DNA of 64,000 nt from Thermoguttaceae bacterium (GCA_045599605.1 JAZRWE010000033.1:85687-149686); one strand, 5' to 3'; shown: positions 5,634 through 25,446, counted from the stretch's first letter. A program made the numbers and translations. Notes: generated by a model not told the origin, from the letters alone.

Positions 5634-5972
5634 ATGAGAATAACAATGGTAGAAAGAAATAGAGACACGAACAGATCTTCGCAAGCGCAAGATCGCCGCC
5701 AATTTTGTCGCGTTTGTTTTGCGGCGTTGGCTAGCGCGTTAGTATTGCCCGGTTGCAAAACGCTGAACGAAGATCCTAAGAACGACCGATTCTGGTTCCC
5801 GACGATCGCGCCGCCGTCAAAGAAAGAGCGCGAGTTACGAGGGCGTTACGCCGAAGGGGGCGATCCTTACGTCGACGCCAACGTCGGACCGAAATCGTTT
5901 AACACGCGTCCGAAGGGGTGTACCGACCAACGCTCGCGAACTTATTACGACGATGAGATCGGCGGTTATTAA
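5634..5972 (+). CDS. small putative lipoprotein (lipobox LPGC)
   Basis: It has a signal-peptide-like hydrophobic stretch ALASALVLPGC followed by Cys. No homology was recognised. Confidence 0.4.
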   Translation: MRITMVERNRDTNRSSQAQDRRQFCRVCFAALASALVLPGCKTLNEDPKNDRFWFPTIAPPSKKERELRGRYAEGGDPYVDANVGPKSFNTRPKGCTDQRSRTYYDDEIGGY

Positions 5973-6060: not shown

Positions 6061-6273
6061 TAATCGAAAAAGCTTTCTTTTTTGGAAAAATAGGTAAAAA
6101 GTTTTAAATTCTCTTTTCTTTTGCATTAAAAAATGATATAATCGCGACGACTATCGCATTTATACGTAGTCAATATTAATAGTAGTCGCCAAGGGAAGGC
6201 GACTGCGAACCGTTGAGACTCCTACGGTCCCCCCTGCACTTTGAAGTAATAAACTATGAAGGAGACGGACGTT

Positions 6274-7575
6274 ATGAAACGCCTGGCTGGAACGACTTAT
6301 AATAAATCCGGTTTTACGTTGTTGGAATTGCTTATCGTATTGGCGATCTTGATCGTCATTATTGGTATTCTTGGAACGACGATCTGGGGTTCCTATAAAA
6401 AAGCGTTGATCCGCGCGGCTACGGTCCAAGTTCAGACGACGCTCCAAAACGCTTGCGAAGACTTCCATATCGAATTTCATCGTTATCCGAACCAACAAGA
6501 AGGACTTTACATTCTTGCCGACATGGATAATCCGGAAGCCCCCGCGATGAATATGATGGACGCCAATAATATGAATAATATGAACGGCGGCATGAACAAT
6601 ATGGGCATGGGCAACATGGGCATGACCGGCGATATGAACGGCAACATGGGCATGGGTAACATGGGCGCCGGCAACATGGGCATGGCCGGCGACATGAACG
6701 GCAACATGGGCATGGGCAACATGGGTATGGCCGGCGACATGAACGGCAACATGGGCATGGGCAACATGGGCATGGGCAATATGGGCATGACCGGCGACAT
6801 GAACGGTAACATGGGCATGGGCAACATGGGCATGGGGAACACCGGTATGGGCGACATGACCGGCATGAATAACAACATGACGGGCGTTTCTATGACCGGC
6901 GACATGAACAACATGAATAACATGAACAATATGCCCGGCATGAACAACATGAACAACATGAACGGCACGGCTAATTCGACTATGCCGATGAATGGTTCCA
7001 ACACGATCTACAAGCGTCCTAAGATCAGCGTCCCGCTCATCAAAGAAAAAGACCTCATCGACCCGTGGAACAATCCTTACAAGTACGAATACCCGACGAC
7101 CAAGGGTGACGGCAAGAAGCCCGCGATCTGGTCTTGCGGTCCTGACGGTATCGACGACAACGGCGACGGCGACGACGTCATCAACTGGGACGCCGAAGAT
7201 ACTACCGGTATGATGAACGCTCAGCGTCAACAAATGCAACAAAACAACATGAACAACATGAATAACATGACCGGCGACATGAACAACATGAACGGCATGA
7301 TGCAACCGAACATGACCGGCGACATGAATAACATGAACGGCATGATGCAACCGAACATGACCGGCGACATGAACAACATGAACGGCATGATGCAACCGAA
7401 CATGACCGGCGACATGAATAACATGAACGGCATGATGCAACCGAACAACATGAACGGCGGTATGGGCGGTATGAACGGCGGCATGATGCAACCGAATAAC
7501 ATGAACGGCGGCATGGGTGGTATGAACGGCGGCATGAACGGCATGGGCGGCGGTATGACCGGCGGCATGTTCTGA
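6274..7575 (+). CDS. GspG-like major pseudopilin (prepilin-type N-terminal cleavage/methylation domain) with about 250 aa of Met/Asn/Gly-rich repeat insertions
   Basis: The N-terminus reads MKRLAGTTYNKSGFTLLELLIVLAIL, the classic prepilin leader plus hydrophobic helix. The GspG core elements QQEGLY and DPWNNPYKYEYP...GKKPAIWSCGPDGIDDNGDGDDVINWD are present. A perfect SD (AAGGAG, 6259-6264) precedes the ATG at 6274. The ORF track's ATG at 6256 lies inside that SD. Confidence 0.75.
   Translation: MKRLAGTTYNKSGFTLLELLIVLAILIVIIGILGTTIWGSYKKALIRAATVQVQTTLQNACEDFHIEFHRYPNQQEGLYILADMDNPEAPAMNMMDANNMNNMNGGMNNMGMGNMGMTGDMNGNMGMGNMGAGNMGMAGDMNGNMGMGNMGMAGDMNGNMGMGNMGMGNMGMTGDMNGNMGMGNMGMGNTGMGDMTGMNNNMTGVSMTGDMNNMNNMNNMPGMNNMNNMNGTANSTMPMNGSNTIYKRPKISVPLIKEKDLIDPWNNPYKYEYPTTKGDGKKPAIWSCGPDGIDDNGDGDDVINWDAEDTTGMMNAQRQQMQQNNMNNMNNMTGDMNNMNGMMQPNMTGDMNNMNGMMQPNMTGDMNNMNGMMQPNMTGDMNNMNGMMQPNNMNGGMGGMNGGMMQPNNMNGGMGGMNGGMNGMGGGMTGGMF
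6590..7446 (+). repeat. in-frame tandem DNA repeats inside the GspG-like gene: about 42-bp units (GDMNGNMGMGNMGM) across 6590-6960, and four near-perfect 45-bp units (MTGDMNNMNGMMQPN) at 7267-7446
   Basis: Direct reading shows ATGACCGGCGACATGAA(C/T)AACATGAACGGCATGATGCAACCGAAC repeated four times head-to-tail at 7267-7446. Upstream, GGCAACATGGGCATG...GGCGACATGAACGGCAACATGGGCATGGGCAACATGGGCATG recurs several times. Confidence 0.85.
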
Positions 7576-7758: not shown

Positions 7759-9867
7759 ATGAGAAGAACCGCGTTCACGCTGCTTGAACTCTTGTTAGTT
7801 TTGGCGATCATCATCGCGATCGCCGGAATGGGAGTTATGGGGTACCAGCGTCAATACGCTCGTTCTCAATTCAAGAGCGGCGTGATACAGTTGCAGGTCG
7901 ATCTGACTTGCGCGCGCGTCTTGGCCATGCAGTCGGGCAACGCTTACGTCTTTCGCTATGTTCCCGGTTCTAACGTCTATGAGATCGCGCCTCTGAAAAC
8001 TCTGCAAGAAACTCTCTATCGCGTTAACGGCGATCTTGCCCAAGCGGACGGTTACGACTCTCTCGGAGGTTCGCTTACGACTTCCGTAGGTCCGACGCCT
8101 TCGCTCGGCGTTTCCGCGTTAGGCGCGAATCCTCTCGGTATGGATCTTCTAGGCGCGAACTCGTTGAACATGGGCGCGGGGACGACTTCTATCGGATTCG
8201 ATACCTCGGCGCTCGGCGCGTTGACCGGAACCGACCCCGCCGCCGCGATGATGGGGGCGATGATGGGCGTCAATATGGGATCGGGCGCCGCGACCGCGTA
8301 TACCGACGACCTTTTCTCGCCGGAGAATATTGCCGCCGATATGGCGGAGGCGATGAAAGCCAACGAACGCGACGCGCGCTTGGGCGCAACTAACGTCGAT
8401 CTGACCGGCGGTCTTGGCGGGAGTTTGAATTCGATAGCAGGCGTGCCCGCGCTTGCCTCTAATAATATGACGCCCGGACTTGGCGGTTCCGCGCTTGGCG
8501 GGACGGCGCTTGGCGGCGCCGCGATGATGAATGGCGCCGCGACTTCGGGCGTTGCGAGTCCTTACGGTTACGCGACCGATTACTCCGGTATGGGAGGCGA
8601 ATTTGGACTTGATGCGACGGGTATGACGACCGGACAAGTTCCGTCGGCGATACAGACGCTGCGCGATCTCAACGGTACCGAGAAATTACTTGCCGACGAA
8701 CACACGCTAATGTCGCGAGTCAATCTCGACGGTCTTATCATTCGTAAACAGATCGCCGGCGACGTCGTTTTCACTTTCATGCGCGTCTCCGATTCGACCT
8801 CGTCGCCGTTGCGCGCTCGACGTCCCGGCGCAGCGAAAAACGATTCGGCTAGTCCGATCACAGGCGCGAGCGAAGGCGAAGACCTCGGTTCCGCGCTCGG
8901 CGGATCGTTGCGCAGTATCCCAGTCGCTTCTAATAACGACGCCTTGGGCGGCGCGTTGAGCGCGATACCGGGAACGGATCCGACCGGTATGACCGACGCC
9001 GAGTCTTATGAGGAAGATCCGCTTGCGACGAGCATGTGGTCGGAACCGCTCGTGTTCTTTCCCAACGGTAAGACGTCGAGCGCCGTTCTCGGCTTCGCGA
9101 GTATGAACGAGTACTCGTTCTATTCCGAGATCTCGTTGCGCGGTATGACCGGCGTTTCGCGTATCTCCGCGATCTCCGCGGTTCCGCCGGAATACGACCC
9201 CGCGTCGACCGCGTTGACGCAAGAACAGCTCTTCCGACTCTATAATCCCGGCGTCGCGTATTCAGGAAACGACCCCGCAAACGCAAGCGCGACAGGCGGC
9301 GCGCTAAACTCGACGACTCCAAACGCCGCGCTTGGCGTGGACGCGCCCGACGTCGCGACGACGTCCGGATCGCTCGATACGCTTGGCGGACTTGGCGCGA
9401 GCGACTTGTCCGCTCCTTCTGTGAACTATGGTCGAGCGGGCGGAGGCGGTTACGGCTCTACGGAACGTCGCTCGGGCTACAGCTTCAACGCGACCGGCGG
9501 TCGCAACGGCGGCGCGCAAGGCATGCCCGACGCCGGCGGACTTGGCGTCGCGAACGGCGGTATGGACCAAGGCGCGTTAGGCGGAATGAACAACGCGAAC
9601 GGCGCTCTTGGCGGCATGAACGATCCGACAGGCGGAATGAACAACGCGACGGCCGGAGGCGGACTTGGCGGTTTGGGCGGCGCTAATAACGGCGCGCTTG
9701 GCGGTAACGACGATCCGTTTGGAGCAGTCGACGCGGCTATGGGCGGTCTTGGAAACGACGGCGGCGGTCTTGGCGGTAACGCGAACAACGCCGGCGGCGC
9801 GCTTGGCGGCGGCGAAAACGATCGCAACGACAGAAACGAACAAGATATTATGGGAGGCGGACTGTGA
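7759..9867 (+). CDS. GspH/FimT-like minor pseudopilin (prepilin N-terminus) with a long G/A/S/L/M/N-rich low-complexity C-terminal extension
   Basis: The N-terminus is MRRTAFTLLELLLVLAIIIAIAG. A GspH-like segment (GVIQLQVDLTCARVLAMQSGNAYVF) follows. The 702-aa protein is dominated by LGG/ALGG repeats, and an SD (GAGGT) precedes the ATG. Confidence 0.6.
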   Translation: MRRTAFTLLELLLVLAIIIAIAGMGVMGYQRQYARSQFKSGVIQLQVDLTCARVLAMQSGNAYVFRYVPGSNVYEIAPLKTLQETLYRVNGDLAQADGYDSLGGSLTTSVGPTPSLGVSALGANPLGMDLLGANSLNMGAGTTSIGFDTSALGALTGTDPAAAMMGAMMGVNMGSGAATAYTDDLFSPENIAADMAEAMKANERDARLGATNVDLTGGLGGSLNSIAGVPALASNNMTPGLGGSALGGTALGGAAMMNGAATSGVASPYGYATDYSGMGGEFGLDATGMTTGQVPSAIQTLRDLNGTEKLLADEHTLMSRVNLDGLIIRKQIAGDVVFTFMRVSDSTSSPLRARRPGAAKNDSASPITGASEGEDLGSALGGSLRSIPVASNNDALGGALSAIPGTDPTGMTDAESYEEDPLATSMWSEPLVFFPNGKTSSAVLGFASMNEYSFYSEISLRGMTGVSRISAISAVPPEYDPASTALTQEQLFRLYNPGVAYSGNDPANASATGGALNSTTPNAALGVDAPDVATTSGSLDTLGGLGASDLSAPSVNYGRAGGGGYGSTERRSGYSFNATGGRNGGAQGMPDAGGLGVANGGMDQGALGGMNNANGALGGMNDPTGGMNNATAGGGLGGLGGANNGALGGNDDPFGAVDAAMGGLGNDGGGLGGNANNAGGALGGGENDRNDRNEQDIMGGGL

Positions 9868-10652
9868 TCGTCAAACGAAGTTCCGGACTCTTGCGCCGCG
9901 AGCGCGAACGCGTTGCGGCGACACGTCGCGCGTTTACGTTGTTGGAGATCCTTGTCGTGCTCGCCGTCCTCGGCATGGGTATGGGGCTCATCACGCAGAT
10001 GACGCTCGTCGCGTCGCGTCACTCCGAACGCGTTGAAGAAGACACGTTCGTTCAACTTGCTTGCGAGAACATGATGAGTTCGATCCTTGCGGGGAACATG
10101 ACCGCGACGGTCGGCGTCTCTACTCCGATCCCCGACGCGCCAAATTGGGAAACGACGATCGAATTGCTCGACGGCCCGATCGAGAAACTTGTCGCGATAC
10201 GCATCACCGCGCAGCGATACGCGATCGAAGAGTACCCGTCGCAAGACGGTTCCGGGTTCCCTATTAGCGTGCGCGAACCGGAAGACGGTCGACGCTTCGT
10301 GATCAAGGAATACGCGCGTCGCGCCGACATAAAAACGCGCGTCGTCCAGACGAACGCTCAAGGCGAAATGACGGCGACCGACGGGACCGGCGAAACGTTC
10401 GCAAACGATCTCTTGGGTCAACAAAACGCGATGGGCGGCGGACTCGGTATGGACGCGCTCGACCCGTTTGCGGCGGTAGATCGCGGCATGGCGGCGACTA
10501 ACGGCGGTAATAATAACGTCGGCGGCGGTCTAGGCGGCGGAGTCGGCGGTCTAGGCGGCATGACCGGCGGCTTTGGCGGCGATAATATCAACGTCGGCGG
10601 CGGTCTTGGCGGCGGTAATCTCGATCGGGGATTCGGAAACCTTGGTTTCTGA
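9864..10652 (+). CDS. GspI-like minor pseudopilin (prepilin N-terminus), GTG start overlapping the upstream stop
   Basis: The sequence contains RRAFTLLEILVVLAVLGMG. A GTGA start/stop overlap with the previous gene is preceded by a GGGAGG SD. The C-terminus is G-rich GGGLGG repeats. Confidence 0.5.
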   Translation: MIVKRSSGLLRRERERVAATRRAFTLLEILVVLAVLGMGMGLITQMTLVASRHSERVEEDTFVQLACENMMSSILAGNMTATVGVSTPIPDAPNWETTIELLDGPIEKLVAIRITAQRYAIEEYPSQDGSGFPISVREPEDGRRFVIKEYARRADIKTRVVQTNAQGEMTATDGTGETFANDLLGQQNAMGGGLGMDALDPFAAVDRGMAATNGGNNNVGGGLGGGVGGLGGMTGGFGGDNINVGGGLGGGNLDRGFGNLGF

Positions 10653-10693
10653 TCGTAACACAAAAATGAAGCGCGAGTTTCGCGTTATACGAT

Positions 10694-13261
10694 ATGAAAA
10701 AGCAAGAAGACGATACGATGAGAACGAAATTGCGAGTCGAACGCGGCGCGGATCCAACGCGTCGTGGGTTTACTTTGCTTGAAATTCTCCTCGTCTTGGT
10801 GTTGATAGTCGTTCTACTTGGCGGTCTTGCTTCGTTAATACGCGTATTCACCAATAGTTATTTCTCAAATGAACGTCGCGTCGGTAGAGCGCAACTTGCG
10901 CGTTCGATATCGCAGATGCTTGAAGACGATCTTGGCGCCGCGATACAGGATCCAATACAAGCGGTCGCCGAAGACGCTAACCGCCAATTTATCCGCCACT
11001 TCGGACTTCGCGGGGACGCGCGGTCGTTACAGATCGACGTCGTGCAACCTAGCCTGTTTGCGAAGACGGCCACCGTCGACGAGAATATCCGCGTTCAATC
11101 CGGCGGGGATAAATCCGCAGCGTCGCGACAAGCGCCGGAATTGAAAACGATCTTCTACGAATTTGTTCCGATCAACGCAAGCGAAGTTATTGAAGGACAA
11201 CAAAATACGACAAACGGAACCGTCGCCGCGCAAGGCGAGGATCTTGGTTCTTCGCTGACCGGCTCGCTTTCCTCGACTTCGCCCGACTCGGCGTTGTCTA
11301 ACGTTAACGGTGACGTTCTCGCCGACTCGTCTTCTTTCCGCGATCCAACGCTTCCGCTCGCGCAGAAATACGGCTTGTCGCGTCGCGAACTCGATTTTGA
11401 GACGCCGGAAGAAGATACGGAAGAAACGGACCAACTAAGCGCGTACGATCTTGGCGCCTCTATCGATCCTGAGACGGGGGCGGCGACCTCGACGTTGAGC
11501 GGTTCGCTGACGTCCGCGCCGACGACTCAGAACTCTACGCTGACGTCGACCGATCCTAGCGTCAACGCCGCGCTCGGTATCGTCGACGCGACGCAATACG
11601 TTTACAAAGAACCGCTTACCGCCGTACAGATCGCGATGGATTCAGACGACGGCACGACGTGGGCGCCGGAAGTGCTCGATTGCCGTTTCAGCTACTTTGA
11701 CGGCGAAAAATGGCGCGATTCGTGGGATAGTATTCAAGATAAAGGACTTCCGATCGCGATCAAGGTCGAATTGAAGATGGCGCCGCTCGACGACGTCGAT
11801 CTCTATCGCAGCGCGCCGATCTTCGCGATGTTGCCCGTAGCGCCCGACCTTGAAACGCTTTCAAAACTAGCGACCGCGGGAGACCAACTTGTCGATACCG
11901 ACGAAGTTAACGTAAGTCGTTTGGCAGGCTCGCTTACTCGTACCGCGAAAGAAAAAGGCGAACCCGTCGACGTGTTCAATTCGTATCGGCCTCTTGCCGC
12001 TATTCGCGCCGCGATGGAAGGCGTGGTCACCAATCGCGACGGCGCTTCGACGTTCGCGGAAGTCGCCGCGTCCGCTATGCTGTTGCGTGCCAATGAGTTA
12101 GAAACGCAAAACGCGAGTTCGCCCGGCGATATGGAAGGCGGTCTGGCGTTCAGTAGCGGACTTGGCGGTTCGCTCAACGGTTCTTCTACGTCGACGGACG
12201 GCGCGTTAGGGGGCGGCTTGACTTCCGGAACCGCTAATACCGCCAACGTCAATACGGGCGACCCGAGTCTGGACCCGTCGATCGCGATCGTGCAGGAAAT
12301 GATGGCGAACGGCGCCGTATTTAACGAGGCGGGTATCTGCGTCGACTTCTCTAACGACGGTTCTTATGTAACGCTCGAACAGATCGCCGAGGAGATCGGC
12401 GTGACGGAACCCAATGTTTACGAAGTGATCGTCTATCTCCCGACGACTCCGCTCAGCCGCGCGACGACGGTCCAACGCCGCGTCGCGACGACGGTGCGCC
12501 AAGGCAATGTCTCGCAACGACGTAATACGAACGCCGCCGGCGGAAATAGTCGCGATCGTCGCGCGCAAGGTCAGAATCCTTACGCCACCGGTAGAGCGCG
12601 ACAATCGCAACCTCGTGAAAGAACGGAACGCACAAGAAACGAGCGCACGGCGCAAGATCGTCAACGCGCGGATCGGCAGACGGCGGAACGCGGACGCGCC
12701 GATCGTCAAGCGGTCGACCGCGGCGGCCCCGTCGAGCGACAAGCAAATAATCGTCAAGTTAACGAACGCCAAGGAGGCGAAGCGCGAACCGCAAATACGC
12801 GCGAAACGCGAGAACGCGTCGGACGCAACGGCGGTTGGACCGACGATAGCCCCAATACGGTCAACTACGGGAATCGTAACGCGAATAATAGAGCGCAAGT
12901 AGGAGATACTAACGGCGTCGGCGGTTTCGGTAACGCCGCCGCGGATCTCGGCGGTCTTGGCGATCGTAACGCGGTAACGCCGTCTCTTGGTCAAGGGGGC
13001 GGGCTCGCGGGCGGACTTGCCGGCAACGGCGGCGCCACGCAGATTCAGACCGATCCGTTTGCTATCGTCGACCAACAGATGAACGCCGCCTCGTCTGCGC
13101 CGTTTGCGTCGCAAAACGCTGATATGGATATTTTTGGCGGAATGACTACGCCGGGGTTGATCGAGACGCCTAACGGAACGAACACGGTCGCTTCTCCGAC
13201 CGCGCCCGCCGCGCCGCAACGCCAAGGTCAGCAACAAACGTGGATCCGCGGTAAGAAATAA
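10694..13261 (+). CDS. GspJ-like minor pseudopilin (prepilin N-terminus) with large S/T/G-rich and Arg/Gln/Glu-rich low-complexity regions
   Basis: The sequence contains RRGFTLLEILLVLVLIVVLLGG followed by a GspJ-like helix region. The protein is 855 aa, far larger than canonical GspJ. An alternative start is at 10718. Confidence 0.5.
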   Translation: MKKQEDDTMRTKLRVERGADPTRRGFTLLEILLVLVLIVVLLGGLASLIRVFTNSYFSNERRVGRAQLARSISQMLEDDLGAAIQDPIQAVAEDANRQFIRHFGLRGDARSLQIDVVQPSLFAKTATVDENIRVQSGGDKSAASRQAPELKTIFYEFVPINASEVIEGQQNTTNGTVAAQGEDLGSSLTGSLSSTSPDSALSNVNGDVLADSSSFRDPTLPLAQKYGLSRRELDFETPEEDTEETDQLSAYDLGASIDPETGAATSTLSGSLTSAPTTQNSTLTSTDPSVNAALGIVDATQYVYKEPLTAVQIAMDSDDGTTWAPEVLDCRFSYFDGEKWRDSWDSIQDKGLPIAIKVELKMAPLDDVDLYRSAPIFAMLPVAPDLETLSKLATAGDQLVDTDEVNVSRLAGSLTRTAKEKGEPVDVFNSYRPLAAIRAAMEGVVTNRDGASTFAEVAASAMLLRANELETQNASSPGDMEGGLAFSSGLGGSLNGSSTSTDGALGGGLTSGTANTANVNTGDPSLDPSIAIVQEMMANGAVFNEAGICVDFSNDGSYVTLEQIAEEIGVTEPNVYEVIVYLPTTPLSRATTVQRRVATTVRQGNVSQRRNTNAAGGNSRDRRAQGQNPYATGRARQSQPRERTERTRNERTAQDRQRADRQTAERGRADRQAVDRGGPVERQANNRQVNERQGGEARTANTRETRERVGRNGGWTDDSPNTVNYGNRNANNRAQVGDTNGVGGFGNAAADLGGLGDRNAVTPSLGQGGGLAGGLAGNGGATQIQTDPFAIVDQQMNAASSAPFASQNADMDIFGGMTTPGLIETPNGTNTVASPTAPAAPQRQGQQQTWIRGKK

Positions 13262-13307
13262 CGCTTGTTAACGCGGTAATTACGATAGTTCGGATGTGAG
13301 GAACGCT

Positions 13308-15224
13308 ATGGAAAACGACGCTTTAAATACGCAGACTGCCGCGAACGACAACGGCGCCGACTACGACGCCGCGGAACGCGAAGCGAAACGCGTGCGCCGC
13401 GCGATATATAATCTCTTGATATTCGTAGCGTTAGGCGTCGGTTTTGGTAAGATCGCCTCCGTCGATTCCGTTTACGATCGCGCTATTCAGAATTTCCGCT
13501 TGCAACAGATCCCGAAGACGTTGGAAGCTAAGGATAAAGAATTGCAAGACAAAGGCGTCGAACCGGAACGTCGACAAGCGGAATTAGAACGCGTCTACAA
13601 CTCTTTACTAGCCGACGCAAATAAAGCGCGTCCAACGCTTTGCGCTAACGACCGTAGTCGTTGGGCGACGATCCGCGCGCTCGTTGAACCGGATATGCGC
13701 GTCTATCGCTACACGCCTGTGTTCTCCGACGAACAAAAAGCCGATCGTATCTCGGAGCTGTCGATGCGAGAACCGAACAGCGCGAAGAAGATACGCTTTA
13801 AGTTCTACGATAACGAGATCTTACGAAATTGCGCGTCCGATTGCTCCGAACAATTTTCCAAAGAACACGCCGTCGCGAAGCGTTACACGCGAAAGCTAGT
13901 TCCTTACGCCGTCGACAAAGTCTGGGAAACGCCGGGTTGGGATTCTATCGACGTTGTCAAACATGGACTTAAAGACGAAGTTTACGTTCCTGAGAACCCG
14001 TCGTCAGGTTATATCTATTCCAGCAAACCGACCCTATTGCCGACGCTGATGGCGGCCCCGTATTGGGTCTTGTATCATTGCTGCGGATTGTCGCTCTCCA
14101 AAAATCCGTTTGAAGGCGTGAAGATACTACTTGTTTTCTATAACCTTATTCCGTTGGGACTTGCGTTCCTTTGCCTGACGTCGTTAATCGACTCTGTTGG
14201 GAAGACGACGTGGGGGCGGTTGTTCGCGGTCGCAACGCTGCTGTTCGCGTCTTTCGCGTTGACCTTTGTAGCGACGTTAAATAACCATATACCGGGTTTT
14301 GTGGCGATATCGATCTCGCTTTGGGCGGGGATGAAGATCTTACGCGACGGCAAAGATTCATGGATATACTACGCGTTAGCCGGGTTCTTTGGTGCGTTTG
14401 CCGTCGTCTGCGAGTTGCCCGCGCTGGCGTTTGCAGGAACGTTGTTCTTGTGCCTCGTTATAAGTAAAGCCAAGAAAACGCTTGGCGTTTCCGTCCCGTT
14501 TGGACTCGTCGTCGCCGTCGCGTTTGTTTCGACCGACATGATCGCGCATCAATCGCTCAAACCGGCGTATTCTCATAAACGCGATCATATGGCGTTGGCG
14601 GAACAAGCGAAAGCCGCTACGGATGAGACGGCGAAGAACGCCGACGGCGCGCCGTTATTTGAATTCGATCCTAACGACTGGTATTACTACGTTTATTATC
14701 CCGCGGGGAAGACTCGCGAGATGAAGAACGCGCGTATTAGCCACTGGGCTTATCGCACCGGTATCGATCGCGGGGAACCGTCGATCGCGCGTTACGCGTT
14801 CCATTCGACGATCGGCAGTCGCGGGGTATTCTCGCTTGCTCCGGTCTGGATATTCAGTATCTTTGGCGCGATCGCGTTCGCGTTGACAAAAGGAAAGACC
14901 GATCCCGGAAAACGCGCGCTCGGCGTAATGACGCTGGTGTTGACGGTCGTATTTTTTGCGTTCTTCCTGACGCGCGATCAAGGGGACCGCAATTACGGCG
15001 GGGTATGTTGTTACCCGCGTTGGTTCTTCCCGTTGATACCGTTGTTTGCGCCCGCGCTTACGCCGGCCGCCGACGCGTTGTCGAAACGAGCGTTCGGACG
15101 ATGGATCGCGTATTTGGCGTTATTTATCGCGGCGGCTTCCGCGTCCTATCCGACGTGGTCGCCGTGGGTCTCGCCGTGGTTCTATCAATTCGCCGTCGAT
15201 TGGAATTGGATGGAGCCGTATTGA
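13308..15224 (+). CDS. polytopic inner-membrane protein of unknown function (about 230-aa soluble N-terminal domain plus about 10 predicted TM helices)
   Basis: This is a long ORF with many hydrophobic helices. The ATG at 13308 has an SD (GAGGA) 5 nt upstream, whereas the ORF-track start at 13296 is GTG. It lies 35 bp downstream of the pseudopilin genes on the same strand. No recognisable family motif was found. Confidence 0.6.
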   Translation: MENDALNTQTAANDNGADYDAAEREAKRVRRAIYNLLIFVALGVGFGKIASVDSVYDRAIQNFRLQQIPKTLEAKDKELQDKGVEPERRQAELERVYNSLLADANKARPTLCANDRSRWATIRALVEPDMRVYRYTPVFSDEQKADRISELSMREPNSAKKIRFKFYDNEILRNCASDCSEQFSKEHAVAKRYTRKLVPYAVDKVWETPGWDSIDVVKHGLKDEVYVPENPSSGYIYSSKPTLLPTLMAAPYWVLYHCCGLSLSKNPFEGVKILLVFYNLIPLGLAFLCLTSLIDSVGKTTWGRLFAVATLLFASFALTFVATLNNHIPGFVAISISLWAGMKILRDGKDSWIYYALAGFFGAFAVVCELPALAFAGTLFLCLVISKAKKTLGVSVPFGLVVAVAFVSTDMIAHQSLKPAYSHKRDHMALAEQAKAATDETAKNADGAPLFEFDPNDWYYYVYYPAGKTREMKNARISHWAYRTGIDRGEPSIARYAFHSTIGSRGVFSLAPVWIFSIFGAIAFALTKGKTDPGKRALGVMTLVLTVVFFAFFLTRDQGDRNYGGVCCYPRWFFPLIPLFAPALTPAADALSKRAFGRWIAYLALFIAAASASYPTWSPWVSPWFYQFAVDWNWMEPY

Positions 15225-24438: not shown

Positions 24439-25446
24439 ATGAAAGATCGTTTTGGTTTTACTTTGGTAGAACTTTTAGTCGTTATCGCGATAATCGGAAT
24501 TCTGATCGGCTTGCTGTTGCCCGCCGTTCAAGCCGCTCGCGAAGCCGCTAGGAGGATGCAATGCCAAAACAACGTTAAGCAGTGGTGCTTAGCGTTGACG
24601 AATTACGCAGACGCGACGCTCGCGTTTCCGACGTTCACGAGCTGGGGAAACAGCGTAAGCGCGGGAACGACCGGACTCAATACCGGTTTTTCGATCCATG
24701 CGCGCATCTTGCCGTACATCGAGCAAGGTTCGTTTATGCTCGGGATAGATTTCGGCGACTACGACAAGTATCGCCTCTGGGCCAATCAGTCCGCGATCAA
24801 TTCCGCGCTCTTTGAGAAATGCGATTTCCCTTGCGCGACGCTGTGGTGTCCTAGCGAAGACCAGGAAAAAAAGGCGTTGCAACCGCGCAACGACAACTTG
24901 TACTGCAATAACGTGAACTACGTGTTCTGTTCCGGAACAAGCGTAGGGCGCGCGAACAACCTTGACGGGCTCATGAACGACGGGACGTTTCGTTACGCGC
25001 AGACGACGTTTGCGACGCTCGTCGACGGGACCTCGAACACGATGGTCGTCTCGGAAGCGCGTATGCAGCTTGCCGCGTTTTCCGACGCCGAGAAGACTAT
25101 GGATCGCATGAGCGTTTTAGGCGAGGGGACTTGCGAGTCGTATATCGACCCCGACTTGACGGCGATGCGTTCTCAAGCGTCGTTGACGCACCGCGGTTCG
25201 CCGTGGCTTGCGGGCAGACATTACGCGACCGGGTATTCCGCGTACTCCGCGCCTAACGCGAAAGTTCCGGGGATATGGCTGCGCGGATCGGAATTGCTGT
25301 TCGAGGGCGCGGCGTCGAATCATCCGGGCATAGTCGTCGTGGGATACGCCGACGGCAGCGCGCATATCGTCTCCGAGACGATCGCGCTAGACGTTTGGCG
25401 CGCCGCCGCGACCGCCGCGGGGGGAGAGACCGTCTCCGCGCTGTGA
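24439..25446 (+). CDS. DUF1559 (H-X9-DG) domain protein with prepilin-type N-terminal cleavage/methylation motif
   Basis: The N-terminus is MKDRFGFTLVELLVVIAIIGILIGLLLPAVQAAREAARRMQCQNN, which matches the stereotyped start of the large Planctomycete DUF1559 family. An HxxxxxxxxxDG-like element lies near the C-terminus (YADGSAH). Confidence 0.85.
   Translation: MKDRFGFTLVELLVVIAIIGILIGLLLPAVQAAREAARRMQCQNNVKQWCLALTNYADATLAFPTFTSWGNSVSAGTTGLNTGFSIHARILPYIEQGSFMLGIDFGDYDKYRLWANQSAINSALFEKCDFPCATLWCPSEDQEKKALQPRNDNLYCNNVNYVFCSGTSVGRANNLDGLMNDGTFRYAQTTFATLVDGTSNTMVVSEARMQLAAFSDAEKTMDRMSVLGEGTCESYIDPDLTAMRSQASLTHRGSPWLAGRHYATGYSAYSAPNAKVPGIWLRGSELLFEGAASNHPGIVVVGYADGSAHIVSETIALDVWRAAATAAGGETVSAL

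Follow-up and report, generated by a model that had tools for sequence, protein, structure and literature searches.

How three consecutive pseudopilin-like proteins of one bacterium come to share a short peptide in their tails, and what such a peptide might be for, is the question raised by a 64,000-nucleotide stretch of Thermoguttaceae DNA (GCA_045599605.1, JAZRWE010000033.1:85687-149686), hereafter the window. The three genes lie on the plus strand and encode an H-like (702 residues, 7759..9867), an I-like (262 residues, 9864..10652) and a J-like (855 residues, 10694..13261) minor pseudopilin, in each of which a first-pass annotation of the window had noted a motif DPF[AG][AI]VD..M preceded by a Gly-rich run. 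The motif is real, specific and conserved, it lies in predicted disorder and it has a helix-type periodicity. The reading favoured here, at a probability of about one half, is that of a docking peptide that folds on binding, is carried on a glycine-rich linker and is present in multiple copies at the pseudopilus tip.

The shared peptide and its conservation

Translation of the three genes gives DDPFGAVDAAMG in the H-like, DPFAAVDRGMAA in the I-like and DPFAIVDQQMNAA in the J-like protein, and so the presence of the motif in three consecutive pseudopilins is upheld. Copy 1, DPFGAVDAAMG, occupies residues 652-662 of the H-like protein (9712..9744, plus strand), copy 2, DPFAAVDRGMA, residues 200-210 of the I-like protein (10461..10493, plus strand) and copy 3, DPFAIVDQQMN, residues 787-797 of the J-like protein (13052..13084, plus strand). 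The 30 residues upstream of each copy are 23-40% glycine and hold a GGGL or GALGG element, in agreement with the Gly-rich run first described; in all three tails this element directly precedes the motif. The label C-terminal holds in that the copies are in the C-terminal tails, but they are not at the very end, 40 (H), 52 (I) and 58 (J) residues following them.

Within the window the peptide is confined to these genes. Translating the whole window in six frames yields three occurrences of the pattern DPF..[VILM]D, all of them in the H-, I- and J-like genes, and the composition-based expectation for DPF..VD..M is 2-5e-6 per protein. A 12-residue scoring matrix, trained on I-like instances only and then applied to the H and J families, scores 14 bits or more at just these three sites among some 128,000 six-frame window positions (26.9 bits for copy 1 and 22.4 bits for copy 3); the next-best position, at 10.1 bits, is in a frame that runs antisense to an AcrB gene.

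The DNA of the copies differs, as had been noted, and since the 33-nucleotide cores share only 18-20 bases and the 90-nucleotide flanks are only 16-40% identical, a recent duplication or gene conversion of the motif copies is ruled out. A signal at the DNA level was also considered and set aside, the string GAYCCGTTTG occurring three times against 0.5 expected but reaching three in 3 of 100 shuffles. All three copies use the minority codon TTT for the motif Phe (9718-9720, 10467-10469 and 13058-13060), as do 13 of 14 strict-motif instances. This bias was likewise rejected as a signal, as the 25 phylogenetically non-independent instances divide into 16 TTT and 9 TTC against a background of 46% (p=0.05), and the preference, which goes with the codon of the Pro just before, probably reflects an effect of codon pairs.

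Across related genomes the matrix reaches at least 12 bits in 76 of 86 I, 52 of 66 J and 32 of 65 H orthologues, all from Thermoguttaceae-type metagenome genomes, and when judged against composition-preserving shuffles (p<=0.01) it matches 28 of 59 H and 51 of 66 J non-redundant orthologues. The H and J matches fall mostly at a relative position of 0.88-0.96 along the protein. In the 86 I-like homologues the motif has a constant place, right after the globular domain and a GGLG element, and its sequence grades from DPF[AGS]x[ILV]D into SPF[AS]ELDAA, SLFDSFDA and AFDAVDAA, and many J orthologues keep [DSN]PFAIVDQQ. That selection acts on the peptide, as first proposed, is supported by synonymous sites at the motif that vary among paralogues and orthologues, and by a motif Phe (Phe202 of the I-like protein) that is at least 90% conserved in a 22-sequence I-like alignment whose remaining tail is unalignable.

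Absence from orthologues, or a similar frequency in random low-complexity proteins of the genome, had been named as what would speak against the motif, and neither was found. The strict pattern is absent from the G-like, upstream lipoprotein, GT-C-like and six flanking housekeeping genes of seven syntenic loci; the matrix gives one match in 18,281 residues of flanking control proteins and none in the G-like protein or its orthologues from seven other loci. Over 369 kb of fetched loci all matches of at least 14 bits are inside H, I or J genes of Thermoguttaceae-type loci, and the 16 outgroup pseudopilin loci, which come from Verrucomicrobia and other groups, have none of that strength. The search that delivered these related loci was dominated by the generic prepilin pattern and gave about five true orthologous loci plus the outgroups, which serve as negative controls. 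Per locus the I-like protein always has the motif, the J-like usually and the H-like about half the time, with 2-5 copies per operon; all three subunits have it only in the window's own subclade (the window and loci L025 and L026), and a clade that has lost the J-tail copy carries two or three copies in the I-like protein. No Pfam or NCBIfam model matches the motif, and nothing describing it was found in literature on pseudopilins in Planctomycetes, on disordered or glycine-rich pseudopilins, or on Thermoguttaceae secretion.

The pooled consensus spans about 10 residues, [DSN]-[PA]-F-[ADGS]-x-[VIL]-D-[AQ]-[AQ]-(F/L/M/T), in which the invariant positions are the Phe (position 0), a hydrophobic residue at +3 and the Asp at +4. 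Pro is present in only 33-55% of instances, Ala or Leu standing instead in about half, and so the motif first described is present but its conserved core is F-x-x-[VIL]-D with an N-cap and not the tripeptide DPF. The hydrophobic residues at 0, +3 and +7 make one helical face after the N-cap (D/S/N), and D, S or N followed by Pro is the classical N-cap and N1 pair of a helix. In the AlphaFold model of the I-like protein, where the Gly-rich disordered tail comprises residues 176-262 (10389..10649, plus strand) and the predicted local distance difference test score (pLDDT) is below 50 at residues 191-198 and 214-262, a helix over residues 201-213 begins exactly at the Pro and is an island of higher confidence, with a mean pLDDT of 59 for the block 201-210 and of 45 and 47 for the neighbouring blocks. 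In the J-like model every residue from 586 onward has a pLDDT below 50, residue 625 alone excepted. Given the low pLDDT of the tails, the helix of the I-like model and a motif that is not docked on its own globular domain, the peptide is in predicted disorder, helix-prone and not predicted to pack on its own protein. At no more than 12 residues, in a disordered region, as an island of conservation and with local helix propensity, it has the properties of a short linear motif (SLiM) or molecular recognition feature (MoRF).

The operon and the other conserved elements of the tails

Four prepilin-type genes make up one plus-strand operon in the window, the H-, I- and J-like genes being joined by that of a G-like major pseudopilin (439 residues, 6256..7575, plus strand). 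The G-like protein matches Pfam T2SSG (5.8e-12) and N_methyl, and its score with TIGR01710 gspG, 65 bits, is under that model's cutoff. A prepilin cleavage and methylation motif is present in all four (KSG/FTLLE in G, RRTA/FTLLE in H, RRA/FTLLE in I and RRG/FTLLE in J, the slash marking the cleavage site), and the Pfam model N_methyl exceeds its cutoff in G, I and J but, at 13.8 bits, does not reach it in H. The residue at -1 of the cleavage site is Ala and not Gly in the H-like (7768-7773) and I-like (9930-9935) proteins; I orthologues mostly have Gly there. The I-like and J-like proteins belong to the GspI and GspJ fold families. Assignment of the H-like protein to the GspH family is less secure, in that only its N-terminal 60-85 residues match GspH, ComGD and XpsH models, weakly and far under cutoffs, although its operon position fits H.

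No GspK gene is present in the operon and none follows the J-like gene, which is succeeded after a 35 bp gap by a gene for a polytopic GT-C-like membrane protein (13296-15224) and then by SmpB and MutY; nor were genes for the secretin, ATPase or platform (GspD/E/F) found among the large open reading frames scanned in the window. As there is no K gene and the core genes are elsewhere, the operon is of a type that resembles type II secretion system (T2SS) operons, a type IV filament type, and not a canonical T2SS pseudopilin operon. Homologues (65 H-like and 86 I-like were found) come, wherever a source is named, from uncultured Thermoguttaceae or Planctomycetia metagenome genomes, and four of the Thermoguttaceae-type loci trace to metagenome assemblies, namely goat omasum, buffalo colon and two others.

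A small predicted lipoprotein of 112 residues (5634-5972), with a lipobox LPGC and no Pfam match, is encoded upstream of the G-like pseudopilin. By tblastn it is present in 10 of 12 Thermoguttaceae-type loci, the other two ending short of that region, it is conserved at 90-116 residues, and no homologue was found by tblastn in L009, a distant short-tailed Planctomycetia operon. It is possible that it is a pilotin-like or partner protein. Searches of PDB sequences with the I-like profile and with the GT-C-like protein gave nothing useful. A further prepilin-type protein, of the planctomycete DUF1559 (SBP_bac_10) family, is encoded at 24439-25446 and has no DPF-type motif.

All four pseudopilins have large low-complexity regions. 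In the G-like protein these amount to about 300 residues of Met/Asn/Gly-rich repeats (MGMGNMGM..., MNNMNGMMQPN...) placed within the globular domain and at the C-terminus; the inserts of its orthologues differ but are equally Met-, Gln- or Pro-rich, and subunits of this kind would give the filament the form of a disordered bottle-brush. The H-like protein has long disordered inserts and a low-complexity tail from about residue 540 to 702 (9376..9864, plus strand) in which a YGSTE-RRSGY-SF segment comes first, then Gly-rich G[SA]L units, next the motif and last GGGL at the terminus. The YGSTE-RRSGY-SF segment (9376-9450, residues ~540-565) is kept, in the form YGS..RRSGY.F, in nearly all 65 H orthologues and occurs also in a few I-like tails. 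Within an otherwise variable insert, at residues ~178-195 (8290-8340), the H-like protein has DDLFSPENIAADMAEAM, conserved as DDLFSRENIQADME in L001 and DDLFSPANVAADME in L003, the two other H orthologues compared. C-terminal ends also recur, as GG[GSA]L in many H orthologues and as Phe or Tyr in many I and G orthologues.

The disordered C-terminal extension of the J-like protein (residues 586-855, 12449..13258, plus strand) carries a stretch with regularly spaced Arg, then GGLxGGLxG, the motif, PF[AS]x, PGLIETP and QQTWIRGKK, and is alignable family-wide as GGLxGGLxG - [DS]PFAIVDQQ - PF[AS]D - xAFSxVDAA - PGLIETPxG - QQTWIRGKK. The second F-x-x-V-D copy in this series is found in many J orthologues and not in the window's J-like protein. 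At the extreme C-terminus (QQTWIRGKK, residues 846-855, 13229-13258) W850-I851-R852 is invariant across 58 orthologues, and W-I-R is kept even in L009 (QQSWIRNPH). In the Arg stretch (residues ~636-708, 12599-12820) an Arg comes every five residues over about 70 residues (R636, 641, 646, 651, 661, 666, 671, 676, 682 and so on). These Arg positions hardly vary within the J family, and disorder is predicted for the region. Whether the J tail is a portable module was considered, and rejected, as a search of 1.84 billion representatives brought up J-like proteins and fragments and no other protein type.

G[SA]L occurs 11 times in the H-like protein against 2.7 expected from shuffles and is about 4-fold enriched in H and J. 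In the J family G190-S191-L192, G270-S271-L272 and G412..L414 are invariant or nearly so, though in low-confidence loops. A fuller form, L-x-G-[SA]-L-[STN], often then followed by ..P, is seen in the H-like and J-like proteins. The short-tailed L009 operon has [MI][VI]GSLQ..P in H, I and J, followed by DPLFEAIE or DLFQDAGF, and because such elements are already there the short-motif vocabulary is older than the long tails.

What the peptide may do

Pseudopilins are held by their N-terminal helix, the remainder being extracytoplasmic, and the tip is made up of H, I and J; the tails are therefore expected outside the cytoplasm, at or near the tip. That the motif binds something, and what it binds, we infer. 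When free, the motif would be disordered on its Gly-rich leash, and on meeting a hydrophobic groove it would fold into an amphipathic helix of two to three turns whose face is made by the Phe, the Val/Ile/Leu and the Met/Leu/Phe. Several copies per tip complex could then give multivalent binding of one shared partner, for which the I-J groove of a tip without K, periplasmic domains of the secretin or assembly platform and the upstream lipoprotein are candidates. A shared partner fits better than a structural role specific to one subunit, because the copy number of the motif shifts between subunits.

Several points weigh against a docking peptide. AlphaFold leaves the motif undocked on its own globular domain in the I- and J-like models, and in the J-like model it is not even helical, so that the helix comes from one model of modest confidence (pLDDT ~59) together with the residue pattern. 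About half of the H orthologues lack it, as do the J tails in one clade, and so no single copy is indispensable. Finally, the organism is uncultured and no literature on the system was found.

A more specific proposal, which seems quite unlikely as it stands, is that tethered peptides of the H, I and J tails build or license a pseudopilus tip in which K is dispensed with. The DPF-type helices, about three per tip where encoded, would then bundle or dock into the I-J groove, and the beta-strand given elsewhere by GspK or PilY1 would come from the invariant W-I-R with which the J-like protein ends. In an operon without GspK this terminus is a candidate for terminal beta-strand addition.

That the motif marks a site for a maturation protease, or is an export or assembly tag, had been suggested at the outset, and of this nothing points to the protease or to export, although a system-specific assembly tag is still compatible with what was found. 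A periplasmic protease or export factor that recognises the motif and trims or routes the tails would suit a peptide that is conserved and system-specific, and the related TCP system does proteolyse a disordered recognition segment after use (PMC10120004). Yet the strictly conserved neighbourhood has no protease or transporter gene, and the sequence after the motif runs from about 8 to more than 100 residues of variable content with conserved elements of its own, so that in J a cleavage at the motif would lose both PGLIETP and W-I-R. Known sorting-signal architecture is also lacking, as first stated: the 40-58 residues after the motif are polar or Gly-rich and include no hydrophobic segment, and PEP-CTERM, LPXTG and GlyGly-CTERM signals are excluded in that no transmembrane helix comes after the motif and no such Pfam or NCBIfam model matched. 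RTX or beta-roll repeats were rejected too, given no HemolysinCabind or similar Pfam match at E<=1 and Gly-rich runs without a regular nonapeptide by eye. The N-capped amphipathic helix pattern in a disordered tail argues for a docking motif rather than a cleavage site, and processing or sorting is judged improbable. No better placed is the idea that the adjacent GT-C-type protein, a putative glycosyltransferase, docks on the motif and glycosylates nearby Ser/Thr, for example in G-S-L. Its gene is 58-72% identical and in the same position in 10 of 10 Thermoguttaceae-type loci that extend past J, it is absent beside the short-tailed L009 operon, and the protein gives matches to PMT_2 and LA_3751/3752 glycosyltransferases that are weak and sub-threshold. 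The gene for TfpW adjoins a pilin gene, and this GT-C pilin glycosyltransferase of Pseudomonas aeruginosa is the topic of a preprint (bioRxiv 10.1101/2020.04.19.049825). Against such a role, the GT-C family assignment is under curated cutoffs, the motif itself has no Ser/Thr, and SmpB and MutY are equally syntenic, so that the adjacency may reflect conserved gene order only. Use of a helical docking motif is not known to us from any GT-C enzyme. The GT-C-like protein may glycosylate the Ser/Thr-rich pseudopilin tails.

Weak multivalent contacts between tails, made by the Phe-centred motif together with F-G and G-S-L elements in a gel-like disordered brush, and perhaps extending to the Met/Asn/Gly-rich loops of the G-like protein so as to yield a flexible cap, plug or adhesive tip in place of binding to a single groove, would account for low-complexity regions in all four pseudopilins, for the recurrence of short tail elements (G[SA]L at 4-fold over shuffles in H and J, FG dipeptides in I and J tails) and for a copy number that is variable and redistributable within its range of 2-5 per operon. 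This is nonetheless unlikely, since the motif follows a precise 10-residue pattern that includes an N-cap and an invariant Asp at +4, a greater specificity than typical stickers show, Phe makes up only 2-3% of tail residues, and the G-like protein is entirely without the motif. That the motif has no function, and is either left over neutrally from a common ancestor or a mere outcome of biased tail composition, has in its favour that H, I and J are paralogous with tails of like composition and that some lineages dispense with the motif. It is nevertheless very improbable, with so small a composition-based expectation per protein, shuffles that rarely reach the observed scores, unrelated DNA flanks and a motif kept across orthologues whose surrounding tail is unalignable.

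Comparison with known systems and meaning

Classical GspH, GspI and GspJ are exceeded 2-5 times in length by the window's proteins, by way of disordered Gly/Ser/Thr/Asn-rich inserts and tails. To our knowledge the classical proteins carry no tail motifs of such a kind. Within the same machine family peptide docking has three precedents, which speak for the docking reading. The first is the S-domain peptide of the T2SS secretin, an unstructured near-C-terminal peptide of 18 residues that turns helical on binding the pilotin (PMC3276575). It too is short and near the C-terminus, but it is on the secretin, in one copy per subunit and with no sequence similarity to the motif. In minor-pilin tip complexes the last ~10 residues of PilC/PilY1, or an in-cis strand of GspK/CpaL, complete the complex; a peptide of about 10 residues, in some cases the last part of a long region that can be dispensed with, docks there and licenses assembly (PMC13533445). 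These peptides are at the extreme C-terminus and act as a beta-strand, unlike the DPF-type motif, which is internal, of helix type and on three subunits; the W-I-R terminus of J would thus appear the better candidate for strand addition. The third precedent is again a disordered segment that binds at a tip, the export signal of TcpF, whose target is the tip minor pilin TcpB (PMC10120004).

Further afield, SSB has a folded domain, a Gly-rich disordered linker and a conserved acidic/aromatic tip (..DDDIPF) that recruits partners. The likeness, a folded domain with a glycine-rich linker and a short Asp/Phe peptide, is an analogy of design only and not homology, SSB being a cytoplasmic DNA-binding protein unlike the proteins that bear these tails; its disordered linker and partner binding in E. 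coli are the topic of a paper (PMC12143593). Eukaryotic endocytic DPF/NPF motifs likewise place DPF (NPF in some orthologues of the window's proteins) in a disordered region, sometimes in several copies. As Pro is not conserved (33-55% of instances) this likeness is superficial, and with a core of F-x-x-[VIL]-D and tails outside the cytoplasm an adaptor-binding motif of that kind was rejected as a chance resemblance.

Overall these are ordinary minor pseudopilins elaborated with disordered extensions that bear conserved short linear motifs, the motif itself being undescribed. Minor pseudopilins are normally small and fully folded, and the dialogue of the tip with secretin, substrates and assembly factors is poorly defined, whereas in this gut and rumen planctomycete lineage the tip subunits are dominated by disordered chains with a small vocabulary of conserved peptides. 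Were the motif only a lineage-specific embellishment, its interest would be local. Were tethered tail peptides to build or license a tip without K, that would amount to a novel mode of type IV filament assembly or capping, based largely on disordered and possibly glycosylated chains. If the motif is a docking element, it would provide a 10-residue bait with clear point mutants for finding the partner of the tip in a system without GspK, and pseudopilins would join the few bacterial envelope machines that work through disordered linkers with short linear motifs.

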